Shown here: piece after piece, positions 25,509 through 48,978 of the stretch
Layout: each line of letters begins with the position of its first letter
Numbering within the stretch: the first letter of the stretch is position 1
Assembly (NCBI GenBank): GCA_017541975.1
Contig: JAFXYB010000021.1
Coordinates: 197 to 64,196 of the forward strand
Source of the DNA: a bacterium
GTDB lineage: Bacteria; Bacillota_I; Bacilli_A; Izemoplasmatales; UBA1188
DNA length: 64,000 nucleotides
Direction: 5' to 3'
The notes under the pieces: model-generated
Database searches by the model: none
What the model was told of the DNA's origin: nothing
Seen by the model: only the letters and a program-made list of their open reading frames with translations
Translations under genes and position numbers: made by a program

Positions 25509-25985
25509 ATGGAAAGTATTTATGATTTTATAGTAAAAGACAATAAAGGAAACGATGTATCAATGAGCGAATACAAAGGAAAAGTATTGCTTATTGTCAA
25601 TACAGCTACAGGTTGTGGATTCACACCTCAATATGATGGTCTTCAAGACTTATATGATAAATATAAAGATAATGGATTTGAAATTCTAGATTTCCCATGC
25701 AATCAATTTGCTCATCAAGCACCAGGAAGTGCTGAAGAAATTGAATCATTCTGCCAAGCTAGATTCGGTATCACATTCAAACAATTTGAAAAGATTAATG
25801 TAAATGGAAACGATGCAATTCCTCTATACAAATTCTTAAAAAATGAACAAAAAGGAAAACTCGGAAGCAATATCAAATGGAACTTCACTAAGTTTTTAGT
25901 AGATAGAGAAGGTAAGGTTGTTCAAAGATTTGCACCAACTATGAAACCTGAAAACATTGATAAATTTGTTAAAGAGTTATTATAA
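25509..25985 (+). CDS. gpx: Glutathione peroxidase family thiol peroxidase
   Basis: 158 aa with LIVNTATGCGFTPQY (peroxidatic Cys), FPCNQF and KWNFTKFLV motifs. Confidence 0.9.
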   Translation: MESIYDFIVKDNKGNDVSMSEYKGKVLLIVNTATGCGFTPQYDGLQDLYDKYKDNGFEILDFPCNQFAHQAPGSAEEIESFCQARFGITFKQFEKINVNGNDAIPLYKFLKNEQKGKLGSNIKWNFTKFLVDREGKVVQRFAPTMKPENIDKFVKELL

Positions 25986-25988
25986 AAT

Positions 25989-26252
25989 ATGAGACACGAA
26001 TACAAAACAAATCTAGTATGTTCTACTAAAATAACTTTTGATTTAGATGGAGATAAAGTTAAAAACATAGAATTTACTAATGGATGTAATGGGAATTTAA
26101 AGGCTATCTCTAAAATTGTTGATGGTTGGACCGTTGATGAAATAAATGAAAAACTAGCTGGAAATCTTTGTGGTAGAAGGCCCACTTCTTGTGCTGATCA
26201 ATTAGCTATTGCGGTGAAAAAAGCCTATGAAGAGGAAAGAATGAATGGATAA
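25989..26252 (+). CDS. TSCPD-domain 4-Cys protein (TIGR03905-like)
   Basis: 87 aa with exactly four Cys (C11, C33, C61, C68). RRPTSCADQL corresponds to the TSCPD motif. Starts 3 nt after gpx and overlaps ohrR by 8 nt. Confidence 0.75.
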   Translation: MRHEYKTNLVCSTKITFDLDGDKVKNIEFTNGCNGNLKAISKIVDGWTVDEINEKLAGNLCGRRPTSCADQLAIAVKKAYEEERMNG

Positions 26253-26676
26253 TTTCAATAAACTTAGTATTAAAAATCAATTATGCTTTGCAGTATATTC
26301 TTGTTCAAGAGAAATTACAAGATTATATACTCCAATTCTAAATGAACATGATTTAACATATACTCAATATATTACTATGCTTGTTTTATGGGAAAATGAT
26401 AACATCAAAGTCAAAGATATGGGAAAAATCTTATTTCTTGACTCGGGAACATTAACACCAGTTATTAAAAGTCTTGAAAAGAAAGGACTTGTTGAAAGAA
26501 ACAGATCTAAAGAAGATGAAAGAAACGTTTATGTTTCTCTAACAAAAAAAGGCCAAGAACTAAAATCAAAAATTGAAACTGTTCCAGACCAAGTTGGTTG
26601 TTCATTAAATTTAGAACCTAATGAAGCTATAGAACTATATAAACTTTGTTATAAAGTTCTTGATAATATTAAATAA
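26245..26676 (+). CDS. ohrR: MarR-family organic hydroperoxide sensor OhrR (1-Cys type)
   Basis: 143 aa. KNQLCFAVYSCSRE aligns with B. subtilis OhrR ENQLCFLLYASSRE (sensing Cys15). LDSGTLTPVIKSLEKKGLVERNRSKEDER is nearly identical in pattern to OhrR. Confidence 0.8.
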   Translation: MDNFNKLSIKNQLCFAVYSCSREITRLYTPILNEHDLTYTQYITMLVLWENDNIKVKDMGKILFLDSGTLTPVIKSLEKKGLVERNRSKEDERNVYVSLTKKGQELKSKIETVPDQVGCSLNLEPNEAIELYKLCYKVLDNIK

Positions 26677-33822: not shown

Positions 33823-33896
33823 TGGAGGAGCCTCCCGGATTTGAACCGGGGATCAGGGAGTTGCAGTCCCTTGCCTTACCGCTTGGCTAAAGCTCC
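33823..33896 (-). tRNA. tRNA-Cys (GCA)
   Basis: 74 nt folded by hand. Acceptor GGAGCTT/AGGCTCC, anticodon loop CTGCAAC, T-arm CCCGG-TTCAAAT-CCGGG, encoded CCA. Confidence 0.92.
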
Positions 33897-33913
33897 ATGC
33901 TCTTATAAAATAA

Positions 33914-33990
33914 TGGTCGGAAAGACAGGATTTGAACCTGCGACATCCTGGTCCCAAACCAGGCGCACTACCAAGCTGTGCAACTTTCCG
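33914..33990 (-). tRNA. tRNA-Pro (UGG)
   Basis: 77 nt. Acceptor CGGAAAG/CTTTCCG, anticodon stem CCTGG/CCAGG with loop TTTGGGA, T-loop TTCAAAT, encoded CCA. Confidence 0.92.
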
Positions 33991-34028
33991 ACATTATTTA
34001 TTTTTATTAAGTTGTTTATCGCTCGTGC

Positions 34029-34105
34029 TGGCACGCCCAGCAGGAGTCGAACCCGCAACCTTTTGATCCGTAGTCAAACGCTCTATCCAATTGAGCTATG
34101 GGCGC
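34029..34105 (-). tRNA. tRNA-Arg (ACG)
   Basis: 77 nt. Acceptor GCGCCCA/TGGGCGT, D-arm GCTC-AATTGGATA-GAGC, anticodon loop CTACGGA, T-loop TTCGACT, encoded CCA. Confidence 0.92.
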
Positions 34106-39758: not shown

Positions 39759-41834
39759 TTACTCTATTGTGAATTCACCATCCGTACATATTACTTTGCA
39801 TCCTACGAGCGCATCATATTCTACAATAATATCACCAAACGTTCCAGTTCCTTTTGTGTCCTTTTCTCTATTGATTCTTCTCCATTCTGCAATTGTGCCA
39901 TTGTAGATGATCGTCTTTAAACTAGGACAGCCTGATAGAGAATTTGATTCAATCTTTTGAACACTATTACCAATTGTGATAGATTCAAGCACACTGCAAC
40001 CATTAATTGTGTTCCATTTAATGGTTGATATTGTGTTTGAAAATACAATTGTTTTTAATGATCTACCCCAAAAGAACAACCAACTGCCTACAGATTCAAC
40101 ACTGTCAGGCATAGCAACTGATTCCAATGAATAGCAATGTGCAAAGGCATTTCTCTCGATCTCTGTGACACCATTTGGAATAGCAATTGATGTTAGAGAT
40201 TCACAATGTTCAAACGTATATTGTTTTATTGCTTTAATATTTTTTGATAATGTAATTGATGTTAAAGATGAACAATTTTGGAACGCAAATTGCCCTATTG
40301 ATGTGACACTATCAGGTATAATTATAGTTTTTAATGATAAGCAATTACAAAAAGTAAAATCATTTATTGATGTTATGGTATCTGGAATGATTAAGTCGGT
40401 TATCAGTTCATTGCTTATGTAAAGATTATGTGCATAGTAAAGCGGATTTGAAGTTGTAGCTTCAAAATGGATGCTACACCACGATTCAATGCTTGGAGCA
40501 TTAACTCTAATCAAAGATGAACAATTAGAAAATGCTCCATTTCTTATTGAGGTAACACTATTTGGGATTGTAATAGATGTTAAAGACGAACAATTATTGA
40601 ATGCATATTGTCCTATTGATGTAATGTCATTTGGAATAGTTACTTCTGTATTTGACTTCATATACAGAATCAACTCAATATTTTCATCATCAGTATACAC
40701 AATATATTCGTTGTTGATATTAGATAATTTGGATTTAGATTCATCATCAATAATATTTTTTGCATAATAAGCAACATACCCATAATTATATGATCCTGGT
40801 GATAAATTTAAGCTTGATTTATTAATTACTTCTACCAAGCTATAACATTCAAAAAATGCACTTTCTTCTATTGATCTGAGGCTATTTGGAATTGTGATTG
40901 ATGTTAGAGATGAACAATTTTTAAATGCACCTATTCCTATTGAAATTAGGCTATCTGGAATTGTGATTGATGTTAGAGATGAACAATATTGAAATGCATA
41001 TTTTTCTATTGTTGTAACACTATTAGGAATTATTACTGAATTAAGAGATGAGCACCCATCAAAAGAAAAATTATTTATTGAAGTAACACTATTTGGAATA
41101 ATTAAATCAGTAATTAATTCGCCATTTAAATAAAGATTATGTGCATAGTAAAGCGGATTTGATGACCATCTCTCAAACAAAATATTACACCACGATTCAA
41201 GACTTAAAATATTAACCCTTTCTAAAGATGTACAATATTGGAAAGCGCCATCTGCTATTGAAACAATACTGCTTGGAATTGTGATAGATTTAAGGGATTC
41301 ACAATACATGAATAGCTTTCTTTCAATTGACGTAACACTATTTGGGATAACAATCGCTGTTAAAGATGCGCAAGATTCAAACGATCCTACCCCAATTGAT
41401 GTAACACTATCTGGAATAGTTATCGATGCTAGAGATATACAATTAGAAAATGCTCCCTCTTCTATCGAAATAACACTATCAGGAATTGTGACACTAACTA
41501 TGTTTTCGTTGTTATAAAATGCATATTTATTAATTGAAGTTATGCAATCGGGAATTATTAGATTCTTTTCCGTGCCAATATAGTTGACTAATGATACATC
41601 ACTATTATTTAAATATACAATATAGTCCGCTTCCATCTTAGATAATTTTGATTTAGATTCATCGTCTATTATATCCTTTGCATAATATGCTATATTTCCA
41701 TAATCAGAAGACCCAATTGTTAATTCTAAACTTGATTTGTTAATCACTTCTACAAGTCTATAACAAGCACTGAATGCATCATATCCTATTGATGTTAAGG
41801 CTTTTTGAATTGTAATGGATGTAAAAATGGACAA
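39759..41834 (-). CDS. BspA-type leucine-rich-repeat surface protein, C-terminal fragment of a frameshifted gene
   Basis: 691-aa ORF of about 23-aa LRRs (SLTSITIPNSVTSIGxxAFxNCS) with no signal peptide. It opens on a TTG inside a repeat and overlaps the upstream fragment by 40 nt in another frame. Confidence 0.75.
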   Translation of the reverse strand: MSIFTSITIQKALTSIGYDAFSACYRLVEVINKSSLELTIGSSDYGNIAYYAKDIIDDESKSKLSKMEADYIVYLNNSDVSLVNYIGTEKNLIIPDCITSINKYAFYNNENIVSVTIPDSVISIEEGAFSNCISLASITIPDSVTSIGVGSFESCASLTAIVIPNSVTSIERKLFMYCESLKSITIPSSIVSIADGAFQYCTSLERVNILSLESWCNILFERWSSNPLYYAHNLYLNGELITDLIIPNSVTSINNFSFDGCSSLNSVIIPNSVTTIEKYAFQYCSSLTSITIPDSLISIGIGAFKNCSSLTSITIPNSLRSIEESAFFECYSLVEVINKSSLNLSPGSYNYGYVAYYAKNIIDDESKSKLSNINNEYIVYTDDENIELILYMKSNTEVTIPNDITSIGQYAFNNCSSLTSITIPNSVTSIRNGAFSNCSSLIRVNAPSIESWCSIHFEATTSNPLYYAHNLYISNELITDLIIPDTITSINDFTFCNCLSLKTIIIPDSVTSIGQFAFQNCSSLTSITLSKNIKAIKQYTFEHCESLTSIAIPNGVTEIERNAFAHCYSLESVAMPDSVESVGSWLFFWGRSLKTIVFSNTISTIKWNTINGCSVLESITIGNSVQKIESNSLSGCPSLKTIIYNGTIAEWRRINREKDTKGTGTFGDIIVEYDALVGCKVICTDGEFTIE

Positions 41835-42410
41835 TTATAAAATGCAGAATTTCCTATTGATGTAACGCTGCTAGGAAGAGTTATTGATGTTAAAGACAAA
41901 CAACCAGAGAAAGCATAATTTCCTATCGATGTTATACCATTTGGAACAACTATGTTAGTAATAGGCTTTACATAGCATATTAACTCAATGATTTTATCAT
42001 CAATATAAACTATGCAGTTATCATTCATCTTCGATAGTTTTGATTTAGATTCATCGTCTATAATATCTTTTGCGAAGAATGTTATGTATCCATTATCAAG
42101 AGATCCCGCTGTTAATTTTAAATCTGACTTATTAATTACTTCTACAAGTCTACGACAACTACTGAATGCAAAGAATCCTATTGATGTGATGCTATTTGGA
42201 ATTGTGATAGAAGTTAGAAATGAACAATTATAGAATGCTCTTTCACCTATTGATGAAACATTGTTCGATAAGTATACAGAATTAATATAACTGTTGTTTT
42301 CAAAACCATAATCCTTTATCTCTTTTACTGGTTTATTATTATAAGATGCTGGGATAACTACAGTATCATAACTATAATCTTCTTTTCCTGAGACAATGTA
42401 ATATGATTCA
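39914..42410 (-). repeat. Coding tandem LRR array with higher-order duplications (approximate bounds)
   Basis: About 69-nt repeat units. A larger module LVEVINKSSL...YAKDIIDDESKSKLSKM... occurs three times, and RVN..S.ESWC...SNPLYYAHNLY..ELITDLIIP occurs twice. Confidence 0.6.
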
Positions 42411-43015
42411 TCTTCAGATAATTCAAATACAAGGCCATCAATATAAGAAAGTGAATCTATTATTTCTTCTTCTTTGTGACCACATCTTGAACATATTCTT
42501 TCTCTTTTACCATTATTAGTATCTGTAGGTTCACTAACTGTAACCCATTTAGAATAGTTATGGCCTAAAGCTTCAATAGTTCTTGTTTCGCTTTCTCCAC
42601 ATGAACATATTCTTTCTTCTTTGCCACTTCCTATACAAGTAGGACTATTTTTAGTATGCCACTCACCATATTCATGAATATGCTCGGTAGTTATATTCTC
42701 TTGAGTTGTAGTGATTATTTCTTGTGTAGTAGTTATAACTGGTTCTTGTGTAGTTGTGATATTCTCTTTTGTAGTAGTAACTACTTCTTTTGTAGTAGTT
42801 GGTTCATTAAAGGTTGTGGTAGTTGTAGGAATATCTTCTTTAGTAGTGGTTATTTCTTTACTAGATGTTGTACTACTATTGTTATCTACTGTTGTAGTAG
42901 TCATATTATCTTTATTCGCAGTTAAAGAGGTTGTACTAGTGGTGTTATCGTTTGTACAACCAATGATTATTAATAATAGGGATAGGATTAATATAATTAT
43001 TCTTGTGCGTTTCAT
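41795..43015 (-). CDS. BspA-type LRR lipoprotein, N-terminal fragment
   Basis: 406 aa. Signal peptide with lipobox IIGC, Thr-rich linker, two Cys-motif modules, then LRRs. Ends ...AFYNCPFLHPLQFKKP* in the middle of a repeat. Confidence 0.75.
   Translation of the reverse strand: MKRTRIIILILSLLLIIIGCTNDNTTSTTSLTANKDNMTTTTVDNNSSTTSSKEITTTKEDIPTTTTTFNEPTTTKEVVTTTKENITTTQEPVITTTQEIITTTQENITTEHIHEYGEWHTKNSPTCIGSGKEERICSCGESETRTIEALGHNYSKWVTVSEPTDTNNGKRERICSRCGHKEEEIIDSLSYIDGLVFELSEDESYYIVSGKEDYSYDTVVIPASYNNKPVKEIKDYGFENNSYINSVYLSNNVSSIGERAFYNCSFLTSITIPNSITSIGFFAFSSCRRLVEVINKSDLKLTAGSLDNGYITFFAKDIIDDESKSKLSKMNDNCIVYIDDKIIELICYVKPITNIVVPNGITSIGNYAFSGCLSLTSITLPSSVTSIGNSAFYNCPFLHPLQFKKP
42692..42955 (-). 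repeat. Thr-rich low-complexity linker with imperfect ITTTQE/TTTKE tandem units (coding)
   Basis: Protein TTTKEVVTTTKENITTTQEPVITTTQEIITTTQENITT. The plus-strand ORFs 42656-42925 and 42711-43100 are low-complexity shadows. Confidence 0.6.
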
Positions 43016-44711: not shown

Positions 44712-44901
44712 TTTTAAAAAAATTTAAAAGTTTTATAAAAAAATTATTTAGCAATGTTAAAGAAAAATAAATGCCTAAATTTAGAGAAATTTTTAAAATC
44801 ATTTGACACAATATTGTTTTTCACAAATTTAACCCCCTTTACAAAGGGAAAAAATGTGGCTAAAATAGTTGCAGAAATAAGGCAAAATGGATGTATTTAA
44901 T

Positions 44902-44926
44902 AAAAACCGATTCCGGTTTTTATTTT
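44902..44926 (+). terminator. Small terminator-like hairpin in the nrdD upstream region
   Basis: aaaaaccg-attc-cggttttt followed by attttac, about 190 nt after the carboxypeptidase stop and about 90 nt before the nrdD ATG. Confidence 0.4.
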
Positions 44927-45017
44927 ACTCTCTATTGTGTATGAGCATATTGCTTTTTGTTTAAAAACTAATATGTTAAAATTGAAAAGCAAAACAAAAA
45001 AGGTGAGGTAATTTATT

Positions 45018-47384
45018 ATGTTAAGAGTTAAGAAAAGAACAGGAAATATCGTTGCATTTGATATCACAAAGATTGAAAAAGCGATTCAAGACGCATTCGA
45101 TACATGTAAGAAAGAATATTCAAAGGATATAATTGAGCTATTAGCCCTTAGAGTTACCTCTAATTTTGAAAGTAAGGTTGTCAATGGGATTATTGGCGTT
45201 GAAGATATACAAGACTCTGTAGAAGTTGTTTTAATCCAAGCTTCTTATGAAGATGTTGCAAAGGAATATATCCTCTACAGAAAACAACATGAAAACATCA
45301 GACAAGCTAAAACCACACTCTTAAACTACAAAGATACAGTAAATAGTTATCTAAAGATAACTGATTGGAGAGTTAAAGAAAACTCTACAGTTACTTATTC
45401 TGTTGGTGGTCTAATTCTCTCTAACTCTGGCGCCATCACAGCTAACTACTGGTTAAGTGAAGTTTATGGTGAAGAAATTGCCAACGCTCACAAGAACTGT
45501 GATATGCATATCCATGATCTTTCTATGCTCACAGGATATTGTGCTGGTTGGAGTTTAAAACAATTAATTACTGAAGGTTTAGGCGGTGTTCCAGGAAAGA
45601 TTTCTTCTACTCCTGCATCTCACCTTTCTACTTTATGTAATCAAATGGTTAACTTCTTAGGTATCATGCAAAATGAATGGGCTGGCGCTCAAGCATTCTC
45701 ATCATTTGATACTTATCTTGCACCATTTGTAAAAGCTGATAACTTAACTTACAAAGAAACAAAACAATGCATCCAATCATTCGTTTATGGTGTTAATACT
45801 CCATCTCGTTGGGGAACACAAGCTCCATTCACAAATATCACATTAGACTGGGTAGTTCCAAATGACCTCGCTGAACTCAACTGTATCGTTGGCGGTAAAG
45901 AAATGCCATTCAAATACAAAGATTGCGAAAAAGAAATGGCAATGATCAACAAAGCTTTCATCGAAATTATGATTGAAGGCGACGCTAATGGTAGAGGTTT
46001 CCAATATCCAATCCCAACTTATTCAATCACAAGAGATTTCGACTGGAGTGAAACTGAAAATAATAAACTCTTATTCGAAATGACTTCTAAATATGGTACT
46101 CCTTACTTCTCTAACTATATCAACTCTGATATGGAACCATCAGATGTAAGAAGTATGTGCTGCCGTTTACGTCTTGACTTAAGAGAACTCAGAAAGAAAT
46201 CAGGTGGTTTCTTCGGTTCTGGTGAATCAACTGGTTCAATCGGTGTTGTAACACTTAACATGCCAAGACTTGCATATCTATCTAAGAACGAAGATGAATT
46301 CTATGAAAAATTAAGTTCATTAATGGATATCGCAGCTAAATCACTCAAGATTAAGAGAAAAGTCGTATCTTCTTTATTAGATTCAGGTCTTTATCCTTAT
46401 ACTAAGAGATATCTTGGTACATTCAATAACCACTTCTCTACAATTGGACTTGTTGGTATGAATGAATGCTGCTTAAACGCTAACTGGATTAGACAAGACT
46501 TAACTCAAGAAAAAGCACAAAAATTCACTGAAGACGTTCTCAACTTCATGAGAACTAAACTCTCTGACTACCAAGAAGAATATGGAGATCTATATAACTT
46601 AGAAGCAACTCCAGCAGAATCTACTTCTTATAGACTTGCTAAACATGATAAGGAAATGTATCCAGATATCATTACTGCTACTTCTCCTGATCAAACTCCA
46701 TATTATACTAACAGTAGCCACTTACCAGTAGGTTACACTGATGATATCTTCCAAGCTTTAGATATCGAAGACAAATTCCAAACTCTTTATACTTCTGGAA
46801 CTGTATTCCATTCATTCCTTGGTGAAAGAATGCCATCATGGACTGCAACAGCTAAACTCGTTAAAACTATTGCAGAAAACTACAAACTCCCATACTTCAC
46901 TATTTCTCCAACTTATTCTGTATGTCCAGAACACGGTTACATCACTGGTAATCAATCAGTATGTCCAACATGTGGAAAAGAAACTGAAGTATATTCAAGG
47001 ATTACCGGTTACTATAGACCTGTAAAGAACTGGAATGCTGGTAAAACTCAAGAATTCAAAGAAAGAAAAGTATACAATATCGACAAATCAGTTGAAAACA
47101 AACAATGTGCAACTGATACAGTAGTTGAAACTCCAGTTGTTCAACCTGAAACAAATGAAATTCTTCTCTTCACTACTAAGACTTGCCCTAACTGCAAGAT
47201 GGCTAAGATGTTACTTGATAAAGCAAACATTCAATACAAAGTAATTGATGCAGAAGAAAATGTTGATACCACTAAACTTTATCATGTAACAAAAGCTCCT
47301 ACTATGATAGTACCTAGTGCTGGCGCTAACACTTACTATGATAATGCATCTGAAATTAAGAGATATATCGAAGAAAACAAATAA
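45018..47384 (+). CDS. nrdD: Anaerobic (class III) ribonucleoside-triphosphate reductase with ATP-cone and C-terminal glutaredoxin-like domain
   Basis: 788 aa. ATP-cone (VKKRTGNIVAFD...), finger-loop region RSMCCRLRLD, Zn site CPEHG...CPTCG, glycyl radical motif YSRITGYYRPV, then a linker and a CxxC thioredoxin-fold domain. Confidence 0.9.
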   Translation: MLRVKKRTGNIVAFDITKIEKAIQDAFDTCKKEYSKDIIELLALRVTSNFESKVVNGIIGVEDIQDSVEVVLIQASYEDVAKEYILYRKQHENIRQAKTTLLNYKDTVNSYLKITDWRVKENSTVTYSVGGLILSNSGAITANYWLSEVYGEEIANAHKNCDMHIHDLSMLTGYCAGWSLKQLITEGLGGVPGKISSTPASHLSTLCNQMVNFLGIMQNEWAGAQAFSSFDTYLAPFVKADNLTYKETKQCIQSFVYGVNTPSRWGTQAPFTNITLDWVVPNDLAELNCIVGGKEMPFKYKDCEKEMAMINKAFIEIMIEGDANGRGFQYPIPTYSITRDFDWSETENNKLLFEMTSKYGTPYFSNYINSDMEPSDVRSMCCRLRLDLRELRKKSGGFFGSGESTGSIGVVTLNMPRLAYLSKNEDEFYEKLSSLMDIAAKSLKIKRKVVSSLLDSGLYPYTKRYLGTFNNHFSTIGLVGMNECCLNANWIRQDLTQEKAQKFTEDVLNFMRTKLSDYQEEYGDLYNLEATPAESTSYRLAKHDKEMYPDIITATSPDQTPYYTNSSHLPVGYTDDIFQALDIEDKFQTLYTSGTVFHSFLGERMPSWTATAKLVKTIAENYKLPYFTISPTYSVCPEHGYITGNQSVCPTCGKETEVYSRITGYYRPVKNWNAGKTQEFKERKVYNIDKSVENKQCATDTVVETPVVQPETNEILLFTTKTCPNCKMAKMLLDKANIQYKVIDAEENVDTTKLYHVTKAPTMIVPSAGANTYYDNASEIKRYIEENK
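47157..47381 (+). other. Glutaredoxin/NrdH-like thioredoxin-fold domain fused to NrdD
   Basis: EILLFTTKTCPNCKMAKMLLDKANIQYKVID...TKAPTMIV. CPNC lies at 47184-47195, with a cis-Pro-type position downstream. Confidence 0.75.
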
Positions 47385-47389
47385 AATAT

Positions 47390-48280
47390 ATGTACGATAC
47401 AATAATTATCGGATGTGGGGCTGCAGGAATGACTGCAGCCTTAAACATTCTAAGGAACGGAAAGACAGTTTTAATAATAGAAAAAGACACTATCGGTGGA
47501 CAAATTGCCAATTCACCAAAAGTTGAGAATTATCCATCAATCAAAGAAATCAGTGGTCTTGATTTTTCTATGCAATTATTTGATCAAATCACTGATCTCG
47601 GTGCTGAAATGGAACTTGAAGAAGTTCTTGATGTAGAAAAAGTTGGGGACATCTTCAAGGTAGTCACAAATTATAAGACTTACGAATCTAAAACTGTAGT
47701 CATTGCAGTTGGTGCAGAACATAATAAATTAAATGCACCTGGAATTGATAAAAAGGGTGTATCATACTGTGCTCTTTGTGATGGAGCTTTCTATAAAGGC
47801 GAGGAAGTTACTGTAATAGGTGATGCCAATACAGCACTTCAATACGTTCTTCTTCTTTCAGGAATTTGTAAGAGGGTAAACCTATGTATGCTATTTGATC
47901 ATTATTTTGGTGATCAAATCCTCGTTGATAAGGTCGAAAAGAAAGAAAATGTTTTTGTATATAGAGAATTATCGCTTGAATCAGTAAATGGTAATAGTGA
48001 TATGGAATCATTAACATTCAGAAACACTAAGACAAATGAACTTGTGACTATAGAATCAAAAGCTGTATTTATCGCTATTGGTCAAACACCAAAAACTGAT
48101 ATCTACGCTAAACTTGTCGATAGAAATAAACAATACATTATCACAAATGATTCTATGGAAACAAAAACCGATGGACTATATGCCATCGGTGATTGTAGAG
48201 ATAAACAGGTCCGTCAATTAACTACTGCAGCTAATGATGGAGCTATCTGTGCTTTCAATATTAATAAATATTTATCTTAA
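47390..48280 (+). CDS. Thioredoxin-reductase-like flavoprotein with degenerate NADPH-binding motifs
   Basis: 296 aa. FAD motifs IIIGCGAAGMTAA and GLYAIGDC, and redox CALCDG. Where E. coli TrxB has VIGGGNTAVEEA and HLIHRRDGFR, this protein has VIGDANTALQY and NLCMLFDHYF. Starts 6 nt after nrdD. Confidence 0.8.
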   Translation: MYDTIIIGCGAAGMTAALNILRNGKTVLIIEKDTIGGQIANSPKVENYPSIKEISGLDFSMQLFDQITDLGAEMELEEVLDVEKVGDIFKVVTNYKTYESKTVVIAVGAEHNKLNAPGIDKKGVSYCALCDGAFYKGEEVTVIGDANTALQYVLLLSGICKRVNLCMLFDHYFGDQILVDKVEKKENVFVYRELSLESVNGNSDMESLTFRNTKTNELVTIESKAVFIAIGQTPKTDIYAKLVDRNKQYIITNDSMETKTDGLYAIGDCRDKQVRQLTTAANDGAICAFNINKYLS

Positions 48281-48978
48281 TCATATCCTCTTAAAGATAC
48301 ACATTTGATAGTTGACTCTAAAATGCGCTTGAATTCAAGTGCATTTTCTTTTTCTACTGGGTAAAGACTTCTATCTGGAACATTATCTGACATTTCAAAC
48401 TTTTGTAAAAAGAGTTTTTTTGCACCTTTTAGGAATTCTGCCATATCCTTAATAGATTCAGTTGTATGGAAGTTTCCAATGAGGGTAGTTCTAAATTCAT
48501 ATCCATAATCATGATTAATAAGATAATTAACTAACTTGGAAAAATCATCAAGATTAATATTATCTAATCCTACAGTAATTGGATACATGTCTAAAGAATT
48601 TTTGATATCTAGGGCAACATAATCGATTATTTTTCTTTCAAGAAGACTAATCACTAGATCAGCTTTTGTTCCGTTGGTATCAAGTTTAATTCTATAGCCC
48701 ATATTCTTTATTTCTATTAAGAAATCTTCTAAATCTGGACTAAGTGTTGGTTCGCCACCACTTACAACTACGGCACTTAATAATCCTTTTCTCTTATTTA
48801 AATAAGATAAGACTTCTTCTTTTGAATAATTCTCAAGTTTGGTTTCATCATCAATTACAACAAATTCAAAGTTGTGGCAGAATGGACACCTAAAATTACA
48901 ACCAGCAAGAAAGATGGTTGCGCTTATTTCTGTATCAAAATTGACTAAAGAAATCTTTTCAAATCCAGTTATTTTCAT
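48277..48978 (-). CDS. nrdG: Anaerobic ribonucleotide reductase activating protein (radical SAM)
   Basis: 233 aa with CNFRCPFCHN cluster motif and VVSGGEPT SAM motif. Its stop overlaps the convergent TrxR-like stop (shared ttaa at 48277-48280). Confidence 0.85.
   Translation of the reverse strand: MKITGFEKISLVNFDTEISATIFLAGCNFRCPFCHNFEFVVIDDETKLENYSKEEVLSYLNKRKGLLSAVVVSGGEPTLSPDLEDFLIEIKNMGYRIKLDTNGTKADLVISLLERKIIDYVALDIKNSLDMYPITVGLDNINLDDFSKLVNYLINHDYGYEFRTTLIGNFHTTESIKDMAEFLKGAKKLFLQKFEMSDNVPDRSLYPVEKENALEFKRILESTIKCVSLRGYD

Follow-up and report, generated by a model that had tools for sequence, protein, structure and literature searches.

Genes at the locus

A stretch of 64,000 nucleotides from a genome of the Izemoplasmatales (UBA1188; GenBank assembly GCA_017541975.1, contig JAFXYB010000021.1, positions 197 to 64,196 of the forward strand), referred to here as the window, encodes a class III ribonucleotide reductase (RNR), NrdD, that continues at its C-terminus into a glutaredoxin-fold domain (nrdD-grx), followed directly by a gene for a low-Mr thioredoxin reductase (TrxR)-like flavoprotein that lacks the NADPH signatures (Table 1). 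Both open reading frames (ORFs) are as called in a first-pass annotation made from the sequence alone, which had proposed a relay from the flavoprotein through the tethered glutaredoxin domain to the NrdD active-site cysteines. The stop codon of nrdD-grx is separated from the flavoprotein ATG by 5 nt, a gap in which no terminator-like site was found, and the junction is crossed by one rumen contig of 156 nt among the Logan metatranscriptome contigs from related populations of the rumen and the bovine gut, in which pieces of nrdD were also found; on the spacing, the lack of a terminator and this one short contig, co-transcription of the two genes is plausible. The gene for the activase, nrdG, which belongs to the same module, is convergent with the flavoprotein gene and overlaps it by 4 nt at the two stop codons (48277-48280).

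Table 1. Features of the nrdD locus, with positions in the window and the basis of each call.
Feature	Position	Strand	Basis
nrdD-grx, class III ribonucleoside-triphosphate reductase with C-terminal glutaredoxin-fold domain, 788 aa	45018..47384	+	ORF list, Pfam/NCBIfam, homologues
ATP-cone, residues 3-92	45024..45293	+	PF03477, E 9e-20; AlphaFold2 pLDDT 80-91
NrdD catalytic barrel and glycyl-radical domain, residues 121-686	45378..47075	+	PF13597, E 8e-193
Cys175, conserved beta-A cysteine (T. maritima Cys125)	45540..45542	+	Alignment; invariant in relatives
Finger loop Met380-Cys381-Cys382-Arg383, double-Cys with Met	46155..46166	+	Alignment, motif scan
Glu529, aligned with T. maritima Glu495	46602..46604	+	NIEQV / NLEAT alignment
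Zn-ribbon-type site C636-x2-H639...C649-x2-C652, Cys3His by sequence	46923..46973	+	
Glycyl-radical motif RITGYY, residues 661-666, Gly664	46998..47015	+	Invariant in relatives
Variable linker, residues ~687-710, probably flexible	47076..47147	+	AlphaFold2 pLDDT 30-43, no regular structure
Glutaredoxin/thioredoxin-fold domain, residues 711-788, Trx-like cis-Pro motif APT	47148..47381	+	PF00462, AlphaFold2, PDB profile
Low-Mr thioredoxin-reductase-like flavoprotein without NADPH signatures, 296 aa	47390..48280	+	Pfam/NCBIfam, alignments, AlphaFold2, Foldseek
FAD-binding GxGxxG, here GCGAAG, residues 8-13	47411..47428	+	Alignment
Redox-active CALC, residues 127-130	47768..47779	+	CxxC kept in all orthologues
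GDANTA, residues 144-149, replacing pyrophosphate loop GGGxxA	47819..47836	+	Asp145 invariant in clade
MLFDHYF, residues 167-173, replacing HRRDxxR	47888..47908	+	Clade consensus xLFDxFF
nrdG, radical-SAM activase of NrdD	48277..48978	-	TIGR02495 (NrdG2), 177 bits, cutoff 131
Promoter-like site TTTACA-17-TAAAAT upstream of nrdD	44838..44866	+	10/12 match; weak

Distribution and two-way linkage

Using an alignment-based scan for the glutaredoxin domain across one genome per GTDB species, at least 599 pattern matches were obtained, of which 589 were confirmed as relatives, which puts the domain in at least 589 stretches of genomes that each represent a species. The best 80 of these were inspected as loci. 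Their hosts are uncultured Bacilli ('Bacillales', Erysipelotrichaceae-like) and Clostridia (Christensenella-like, Acutalibacteraceae and Oscillospiraceae), with a few from bins labelled Spirochaetales or Bacteroidales. The redoxin and NrdD share a single ORF in 78 of the 80 loci (the remaining two reflect one frameshift and one contig-end cut), and the next gene downstream is TrxR-like in 76, with flanking genes that otherwise vary by lineage; the four loci without it comprise two contig ends and two in which unrelated genes follow. The pairing, whose absence from related genomes had been named at the outset as evidence against the relay, is thus conserved. All-versus-all clustering of the ORFs recovered nrdD-grx (80), the TrxR-like gene (76) and nrdG (65) as the only recurrent families, other clusters being spurious overlapping-frame ORFs or minor neighbours (≤16/80), and no conserved ferredoxin, flavodoxin or peroxiredoxin gene was found among the 80 loci. 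Identity across the species loci was 74-87% for NrdD, 50-71% for the redoxin domain and 38-58% for the flavoprotein. Apart from two assembly oddities, the 120 NrdD homologues nearest to the query (76-100% identity) have lengths of 786-807 aa, and all 120 carry a CPxC in their C-terminal part.

The linkage was also examined in the reverse direction, with a DNA pattern for G-D-[AG]-N-[TS]-A-x18-L-F-D that describes only the flavoproteins without NADPH motifs (GD-type) and that in the known loci matches once per locus, always within the TrxR-like gene. A search of JGI/ENA metagenome contigs, which were not dereplicated, returned at least 120 stretches, and 104 of the 120 listed fall inside TrxR-like ORFs. 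Where the contig extends 250 nt or more upstream, an NrdD redoxin domain lies directly upstream on the same strand in 96 of 97 contigs, at a median spacing of 14 nt. The GD-type flavoprotein is therefore essentially confined to the company of the fused RNR, and nrdD-grx and the flavoprotein gene form a widespread conserved unit.

The sole GD-type flavoprotein without nrdD-grx upstream among the 97 informative contigs (L172:306-1226, minus strand; GDGNSA ... LFDRLF) is a stand-alone gene on a GC-rich contig, preceded by ~360 nt of non-coding sequence and an uncharacterised ORF of 213 aa.

The same linkage bears on whether the flavoprotein serves the redoxin at all. It could be a housekeeping enzyme or unrelated neighbour, or a ferredoxin/flavodoxin reductase that feeds NrdG, which requires a one-electron donor; TrxR-fold ferredoxin/flavodoxin reductases with a role in ribonucleotide reduction do exist (YumC-like TrxB2, PMC4626851), and the NCBI label for the gene is merely 'FAD-dependent oxidoreductase'. 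Such a role is nonetheless very improbable, given a two-way linkage to the redoxin fusion that persists while the surrounding genes change, 15 of the 80 loci in which nrdG is missing and the flavoprotein still stands beside nrdD-grx, and a CxxC in every member that is absent from YumC-type reductases (PMC5627308).

Active-site residues of the NrdD

The product of nrdD-grx matches the class III family models PRK08270 (NF006126; 1124 bits, cutoff 548, residues 2-688 in NCBIfam) and TIGR02487 (525 bits, cutoff 326), carries the class III motifs and has nrdG nearby. The ATP-cone and the glycyl-radical motif of the first-pass annotation were both recovered; its Zn-Cys4 site is a Cys3His site, with the CxxH present in 79 of 80 relatives. 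A phmmer alignment to the Thermotoga maritima NrdD (143 bits) placed Cys175 opposite Cys125, MCCR opposite SCCR (residues 328-331) and Glu529 opposite Glu495, such that the second finger-loop cysteine, the glutamate and Met380, the residues by which the NrdD subtype was to be scored, are all present. The double-Cys loop SMCCRL (residues 379-384) was correctly read, while the single-Cys loop with which it had been contrasted is MGCR in the literature (PMC9669993) and not 'GCRSF'. Across relatives the glycyl-radical motif, the finger-loop cysteines and the beta-A cysteine are each invariant, SMCCR is kept in 76 of 80 species loci (SMCCRL in 120 of the 120 closest homologues) and NLEATPAE around Glu529 in 77 of 80.

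MGCR denotes the formate class and CC the redoxin class of NrdD, with T. maritima residue 495 marking the column of the proton-donor glutamate (PMC9669993, section 4.3). The same work found MCCR in 83% of double-Cys NrdDs, which have what is needed to work with formate or with thioredoxin, and left the choice between the two undecided. In the Wei 2014 classes, as relayed in passages of PMC4493059, NrdD2 is described by a third cysteine and a glutamate, with the methionine too in some members, the glutamate being equivalent to T. maritima Glu495 and Neisseria bacilliformis Glu438. Judged by its sequence, the NrdD of the window has the redoxin-type residue set of Cys175, a double-Cys MCCR finger loop and an active-site Glu529, with the methionine retained, and fits the NrdD2 description so given. 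The closest unfused NrdDs (49-52% identity) also read [SA]MCCRL and NLEATPAE, therefore what is learnt from the fusion would likely hold for far more enzymes that have the same residues.

The tethered redoxin

Beyond the glycyl-radical domain the chain passes through a segment that looks like a probably flexible tether in the AlphaFold2 model, with a length of 23-48 residues across 78 species (median ~30) and an unconserved sequence rich in E, K, A and S. The thioredoxin-fold domain with CPNC that the first-pass annotation had placed after the linker was recovered at that position (residues 723-726; 47184-47195), both by PF00462 (Glutaredoxin; residues 715-750, E 2.9e-8) and by AlphaFold2, which models residues 711-788 in a beta-alpha-beta-alpha-beta-beta-alpha topology (predicted local distance difference test score [pLDDT], 82-89). 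The model of the full NrdD-redoxin chain was poor (pLDDT 61; predicted template modelling score, 0.43), so that only its domain and linker confidences were used.

A profile built from 20 diverse redoxin domains matched generic relatives best in the PDB, including a bacterial glutaredoxin (E 6e-10), the C-terminal parts of protein disulfide oxidoreductases from archaea and a small thioredoxin of the Mj0307 type, with the NrdH structure 1r7h at E 3.5e-5. No NCBIfam equivalog came near its cutoff for this domain, the top match being the YruB family (TIGR02196; 29 bits, cutoff 88.55). Scores against the models for glutathione-dependent glutaredoxins (GRX_bact, 24 bits, cutoff 90; Grx3 PRK10638, 17 and 129; GRX_euk, 18 and 87) and for NrdH-redoxin (TIGR02194; 21.7 bits, cutoff 85.75) likewise stayed below the cutoffs. 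The lack of a match to the glutathione-type equivalogs fits a domain that receives its electrons from a reductase and not from glutathione.

A flavoprotein with replaced NADPH motifs

The flavoprotein has the two-domain fold of low-Mr TrxRs, with the motifs for flavin adenine dinucleotide (FAD) kept and the CxxC in the second domain (AlphaFold2 pLDDT, 91.6), and a Foldseek search with the model placed low-Mr NADPH-dependent TrxRs (NTRs) on top (template modelling score, 0.76-0.84). As first described, it is a TrxB homologue with CALC and with GDANTA and MLFDHYF in place of the NADPH motifs; alignment to four solved Firmicute TrxRs sets these column by column against GGGDSA and HRRDxLR. At the positions of the NTR consensus motifs GGGxxAxE and VxxxHRRDx[F/L]R (PMC5627308), the window reads GDANTALQ and VNLCMLFDHYF, and the score against the NTR equivalog TIGR01292 (272 bits) is under the cutoff of 343. 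Pairwise scores were highest with the NTRs of S. pyogenes, L. lactis, B. cereus and S. aureus (181-193 bits), followed by the Thermoplasma acidophilum TrxR (137 bits), the clostridial flavoenzyme FFTR (6GNA/6GNC/6GND, 104-108 bits) and the Gloeobacter enzyme (5J60, 105 bits).

Among 75 full-length flavoprotein partners from the species loci, all of which retain the CxxC, 62 combine GD[AG]N[TS]A with xLFDxFF, 9 are canonical (GGGN[ST]A and HRRxxFR, as in L084; all in the order nrdG-nrdD-trxB in Clostridia bins) and 4 are intermediate, with either GGGNxA and no HRR (L005, L045 and L081) or GGSDTA/MRRNTY (L006). Within the GD-type clade, Asp145 is invariant (100%), Leu168 (91%), Phe169 (97%) and Phe173 (98%) are nearly so, and ALQY replaces AxEE. 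This strong conservation of the replaced positions therefore points to a new constraint or function and not to decay. A canonical NADPH-type partner in nine species is what would be expected if the job of the partner is to reduce the tethered redoxin.

A TrxR-family tree including the motif-less families had been suggested at the outset. The neighbour-joining trees built here covered the operon-linked partners and, as sole outgroup, the four PDB Firmicute NTRs. The housekeeping NTRs fall outside (bootstrap 100/100), the operon-linked canonical and intermediate forms branch first, and all GD-type forms make up a single clade (73/100); affinity to FFTR was low by scores. The flavoprotein thus reads as a descendant of NADPH-dependent TrxRs in which both NADPH signatures have been replaced by GD[AG]N[TS]ALQY ... 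LFDxFF, and would be a separate, independent offshoot of the NTRs, not one descended with FFTR or with the TRi enzyme of Desulfovibrio vulgaris. Membership of FFTR was excluded by the sequence scores and by Foldseek (none in the top 50), though the NADPH motifs are likewise missing there, and that of TRi by motifs, GD[AG]N[TS]ALQ and xLFDxFF differing from GEGxxAxN and TQ/NGK (PMC5627308).

The closest species-level relative of the window (L004/L006, Bacillales bacterium HK-STAS-FIRM-1) has a flavoprotein (L006:6232-7140) that sits inside the motif-less clade and carries GGSDTA in place of GDANTA and, with an insertion of 2 residues, MRRNTYSPSA in place of MLFDHYF; its nucleotide site may represent a partial reversion or further drift.

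With both signatures replaced, the flavoprotein most likely no longer uses NADPH. The donor could still be a pyridine nucleotide, most likely NADH, bound through a remodelled site in a relay that is otherwise the same. About one third of the clade reads GDGN[TS]A and so satisfies GxGxxA, loss of HRRxxxR alone abolishes just the recognition of the 2'-phosphate, and intermediates with GGGNxA and no HRR exist. NADH-preferring TrxR-like enzymes with glutaredoxin-like proteins have precedents in Clostridium pasteurianum Cp34/Cp9, T. maritima TR and D. vulgaris TR3, passages of PMC5627308 document NADH-preferring enzymes in anaerobes, and the YruB (Cp9) family is the top NCBIfam match of the redoxin domain, though well under its cutoff. 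Against this stand an invariant Asp145 at the pyrophosphate loop, with the second glycine changed to alanine in most members, a glutamine instead of the GGGxxAxE glutamate, and three arginine positions turned into conserved Leu, Phe and Phe rather than into variable residues. NADH-specific Rossmann enzymes usually have an acidic residue at the end of beta-2, and the alignment has none there. On this balance an NADH-driven flavoprotein is unlikely, while being the foremost of the alternatives.

Proposed relay and electron donor

From these observations we infer an electron path in which NrdG would place the glycyl radical on NrdD, Cys175 and Cys381 would give the nucleotide two electrons per turnover and form a disulfide, and Glu529 would act as proton donor. 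The CPNC redoxin, on its flexible tether of ~25-30 residues, would gain access to the Cys175-Cys381 disulfide and re-reduce it by dithiol-disulfide exchange, and the flavoprotein would re-reduce CPNC through FAD and then CALC, in the manner of a low-Mr TrxR. The FAD would in turn be reduced by a donor that is probably a low-potential fermentative carrier (ferredoxin or flavodoxin) and less likely NADH. It is accordingly the relay of the first-pass annotation that sequence and comparative genomics support (linkage in 76/80 and 96/97), and we consider it probable that nrdD-grx, the flavoprotein and nrdG constitute a self-contained module for anaerobic synthesis of deoxyribonucleoside triphosphates (dNTPs), running from flavoprotein to redoxin to active-site disulfide.

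Formate might instead be the turnover reductant, through thiosulfuranyl chemistry at Met380 and Cys175, with the redoxin and flavoprotein in an auxiliary role, keeping the Zn/glycyl-radical-domain or active-site cysteines reduced for activation by NrdG, for example after oxygen. The methionine is kept in MCCR, such enzymes appear capable with either reductant (PMC9669993), and thioredoxin activation of the Escherichia coli class III RNR is on record (Padovani 2001, as cited in a passage of PMC4390871). The second finger-loop cysteine and Glu529 are, however, invariant and both needless for formate chemistry, a covalent stoichiometric redoxin and a reductase devoted to it are a high price to pay for occasional repair, and nine species have an ordinary NADPH-TrxR within the nrdG-nrdD operon. 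Formate-driven turnover is on these grounds improbable, and more so than the use of NADH within the relay.

As to the donor in the relay from flavoprotein to redoxin, NADPH is disfavoured because the three arginines for the 2'-phosphate are lost and an invariant aspartate stands in the pyrophosphate loop, NADH is possible and not favoured, and for gut anaerobes that live by fermentation a reasonable guess is ferredoxin or flavodoxin, with no such gene present in the loci. A further and bolder reading is that the GD[AG]NTALQ/LFDxFF flavoproteins are a new lineage of pyridine-nucleotide-independent disulfide reductases that arose from an NADPH-TrxR in an nrdD operon, serve a tethered redoxin only and drive dNTP synthesis from ferredoxin or flavodoxin; this is put forward tentatively, at somewhat less than even chances.

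Several observations weigh against the relay and its low-potential donor. A ferredoxin or flavodoxin gene is not conserved in the 80 loci, and the flavoprotein scores higher with the NADPH-TrxRs than with the ferredoxin-dependent FFTRs. The third of the GD-type clade with GDGNxA still has GxGxxA, so that some dinucleotide binding is possible there, and GGSDTA/MRRNTY in the closest relative means that the nucleotide site is evolutionarily labile. Met380 keeps formate chemistry compatible by sequence, the poor full-length AlphaFold2 model yielded no docking geometry for the redoxin, and the single 156-nt junction contig may include DNA.

Class III RNR is the dNTP source of strict anaerobes, and the physiological reductant is known for a handful of these enzymes. 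An NrdD with MCCR and the glutamate, fused to a redoxin and beside a dedicated reductase, provides strong genomic evidence for the redoxin route, and NrdD-redoxin, NrdG and flavoprotein offer a convenient three-protein system for the question. The flavoprotein would be another independent case of a TrxR that has lost its NADPH site, with one defined substrate and a replacement motif that is conserved, which makes the donor question easier than for the D. vulgaris TRi (PMC5627308) or the T. acidophilum TrxR. The carriers of the module (at least 589 species-genome stretches) are mostly uncultured gut and rumen Bacillota. Should the new-lineage reading hold, the origin of these reductases would be independent of FFTR, TRi and the cyanobacterial enzymes, their sole client would be the tethered redoxin of a class III RNR, and reduced ferredoxin or flavodoxin, not NADPH or formate, would power deoxyribonucleotide synthesis in hundreds of gut and rumen Bacillota; the fusion would then be a natural 'Rosetta stone' proof of redoxin dependence for the abundant MCCR-type NrdDs.

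Relation to known systems

Full-text literature searches and papers on RNR evolution yielded no description of this NrdD-redoxin/flavoprotein system. A 2022 survey of RNR extensions gives the class III C-terminus as the glycyl-radical domain only, a review on glycyl radical enzymes from 2026 names only formate, or else thioredoxin together with thioredoxin reductase, for reductants, and public annotation reads 'ribonucleoside triphosphate reductase' with 'FAD-dependent oxidoreductase' or 'thioredoxin reductase (NADPH)'. The sole published trace found is an entry in Table S1 of Rozman Grinberg et al. from 2018 (PMC6187632), 'Glutaredoxin:NrdD' of Lachnospiraceae bacterium TWA4 (WP_082039398.1, NrdDd), probably the same kind of fusion and listed there as a table entry only, without analysis of distribution, neighbouring genes or mechanism. 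Each principle has its precedent, be it a redoxin-dependent NrdD with CC and glutamate (PMC9669993 and PMC4493059, in passages citing Wei 2014), a glutaredoxin fused to an RNR subunit or a TrxR without an NADPH site; the variant described here has a substantial unexplored distribution.

The NrdD2 enzymes of N. bacilliformis and T. maritima share the double-Cys loop, the glutamate (T. maritima Glu495) and the beta-A cysteine, and according to passages of PMC4493059, PMC9669993 and PMC4390871 use a protein dithiol reductant recycled by TrxR. In the window, by contrast, the redoxin is fused C-terminally, the reductase gene is adjacent and its product is without NADPH motifs, and MCCR with the methionine kept stands where T. 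maritima has SCCR, at a distance of only 143 bits. In Facklamia ignava, too, an RNR polypeptide carries a fused domain of glutaredoxin fold (Grx-ATP-cone-NrdB), shown to act as reductant of the RNR (PMC6187632), but that fusion is class I, N-terminal on the radical-generating subunit, glutathione-dependent and acts via the C-terminal cysteine pair of NrdA, whereas the present one is class III, C-terminal on the catalytic subunit, free of glutathione-type signatures and served by a dedicated flavoprotein. The D. vulgaris TRi is also an offshoot of the NADPH-TrxRs that has lost its NADPH site, but its gene is monocistronic, its substrate is free thioredoxin in place of a fused redoxin, and its motifs GEGxxAxN and VxxxTQ/NGKxxSI differ from GD[AG]NTALQ and VxxxxLFDxFF (PMC5627308). 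The clostridial FFTR has in common the low-Mr TrxR fold, FAD and CxxC, the missing NADPH motifs and an occurrence in fermentative anaerobes; its genomic partner is TrxA, whereas here it is the NrdD-redoxin. For the FFTR of G. violaceus, the FAD midpoint potential is near -420 to -450 mV (PMC12796991).

The NrdD3 operon of Methanosarcina barkeri, another class III RNR operon with a small redoxin of its own, reportedly contains an NrdH-like redoxin and an Fe-S ferredoxin:disulfide reductase. Its reductase is thus said to be ferredoxin-linked and of the Fe-S FTR type, the redoxin separate and the glutamate absent, in contrast to the flavoenzyme, fused redoxin and glutamate of the window. Cp34 and Cp9 of C. 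pasteurianum, also a pair of a TrxR-like flavoprotein and a small glutaredoxin-like protein with CPxC, from an anaerobe of low GC, are an NADH-dependent TrxR-like enzyme and a YruB-type protein that together reduce a peroxiredoxin. Assignment of the present pair to this type was rejected, as the YruB model scores below its cutoff and no peroxiredoxin gene is conserved in the 80 loci, with Cp34 compared here by its description.

Other observations

Related NrdDs show further variation. Large viral contigs in IMG/VR (≤201 kb; L206-L212 and L216-L217) encode NrdD-redoxin fusions with CPNC, the NrdD being 64-79% identical and no TrxR-like gene lying nearby, and these phage enzymes may depend on a host reductase; in one of them (L209:1862-4231) the nrdD frame is split into three ORFs, with neighbours that are phage-like by eye. 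Among the NrdD representatives P0122-P0270, many reach 1000-1880 aa and align to the query in 2-4 separate stretches, with breaks near query residues ~268, ~380 (MCCR) and ~655, which look like intein insertions at conserved sites; the redoxin fusion is also found among such split-match proteins (P0125, P0126 and P0131). One degenerate relative of 782 aa (P0145, 48% identical) is without Cys175 and the MCCR loop, has neither the glycyl-radical motif nor the C-terminal CxxC, contains an N/Q-rich low-complexity insert and may be a pseudo-enzyme. Another of 895 aa (P0174, 47% identical) has AMCCRL, NLEATPAE, a longer linker and a different C-terminal thioredoxin-fold domain with CPKC, from which it seems that redoxin-NrdD fusion arose repeatedly or predates the family studied here. 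A 950-aa fusion (P0006; L005:5256-8108) repeats ~160 of its own residues exactly (WGTQAPF...NMPRIAYL), an internal duplication that is probably due to assembly; downstream come a TrxR-like fragment of 88 aa and a TrxR-like gene of 306 aa that has GGGNSA and no HRR.

Upstream of nrdD, promoter-like sites of the kind in Table 1 occur in the region in the number expected from shuffled sequence. The NrdR-box consensus gave one site with 3 mismatches (44806-44821), matches across the window being at chance level, and regulation by NrdR was therefore dropped; the leader has at this position a short palindrome, ACACAATATTGT (44806-44817), of weak, chance-level resemblance to the box. Between the promoter-like site and the start codon lies a hairpin followed by a T-run, AAAAACCGATTCCGGTTTTTATTTT (~44903-44927). 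A scan of the window at Rfam gathering thresholds returned three tRNAs only, clustered at 33826-34105 on the minus strand, and no element in the nrdD leader. At the convergent end of the module, terminator-like hairpins on the plus (48320-48347) and minus (48190-48167) strands each lie inside the 3' end of the opposite gene.

The window, which encodes PolC, RecG, PheT and FakA, is an ordinary piece of chromosome from a low-GC Bacillota (GC ~0.28-0.36), and gut metagenomes, among them ones from sheep and bovine samples, contain DNA nearly identical to it. At 25509-26676 (plus strand) a gene of the glutathione-peroxidase family (PF00255, E 1.7e-40) precedes one for a MarR/SarA-type regulator; it is a further thiol-dependent redox gene and is unlinked to the nrd module. 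Two neighbouring ORFs of 691 and 406 aa (39759-43015, minus strand) contain repeated 'SITIPxSVTSIGxxAFxxCxSL' units and, judged from the translations, resemble BspA-type leucine-rich-repeat surface proteins, the second having a Thr-rich N-terminal region.

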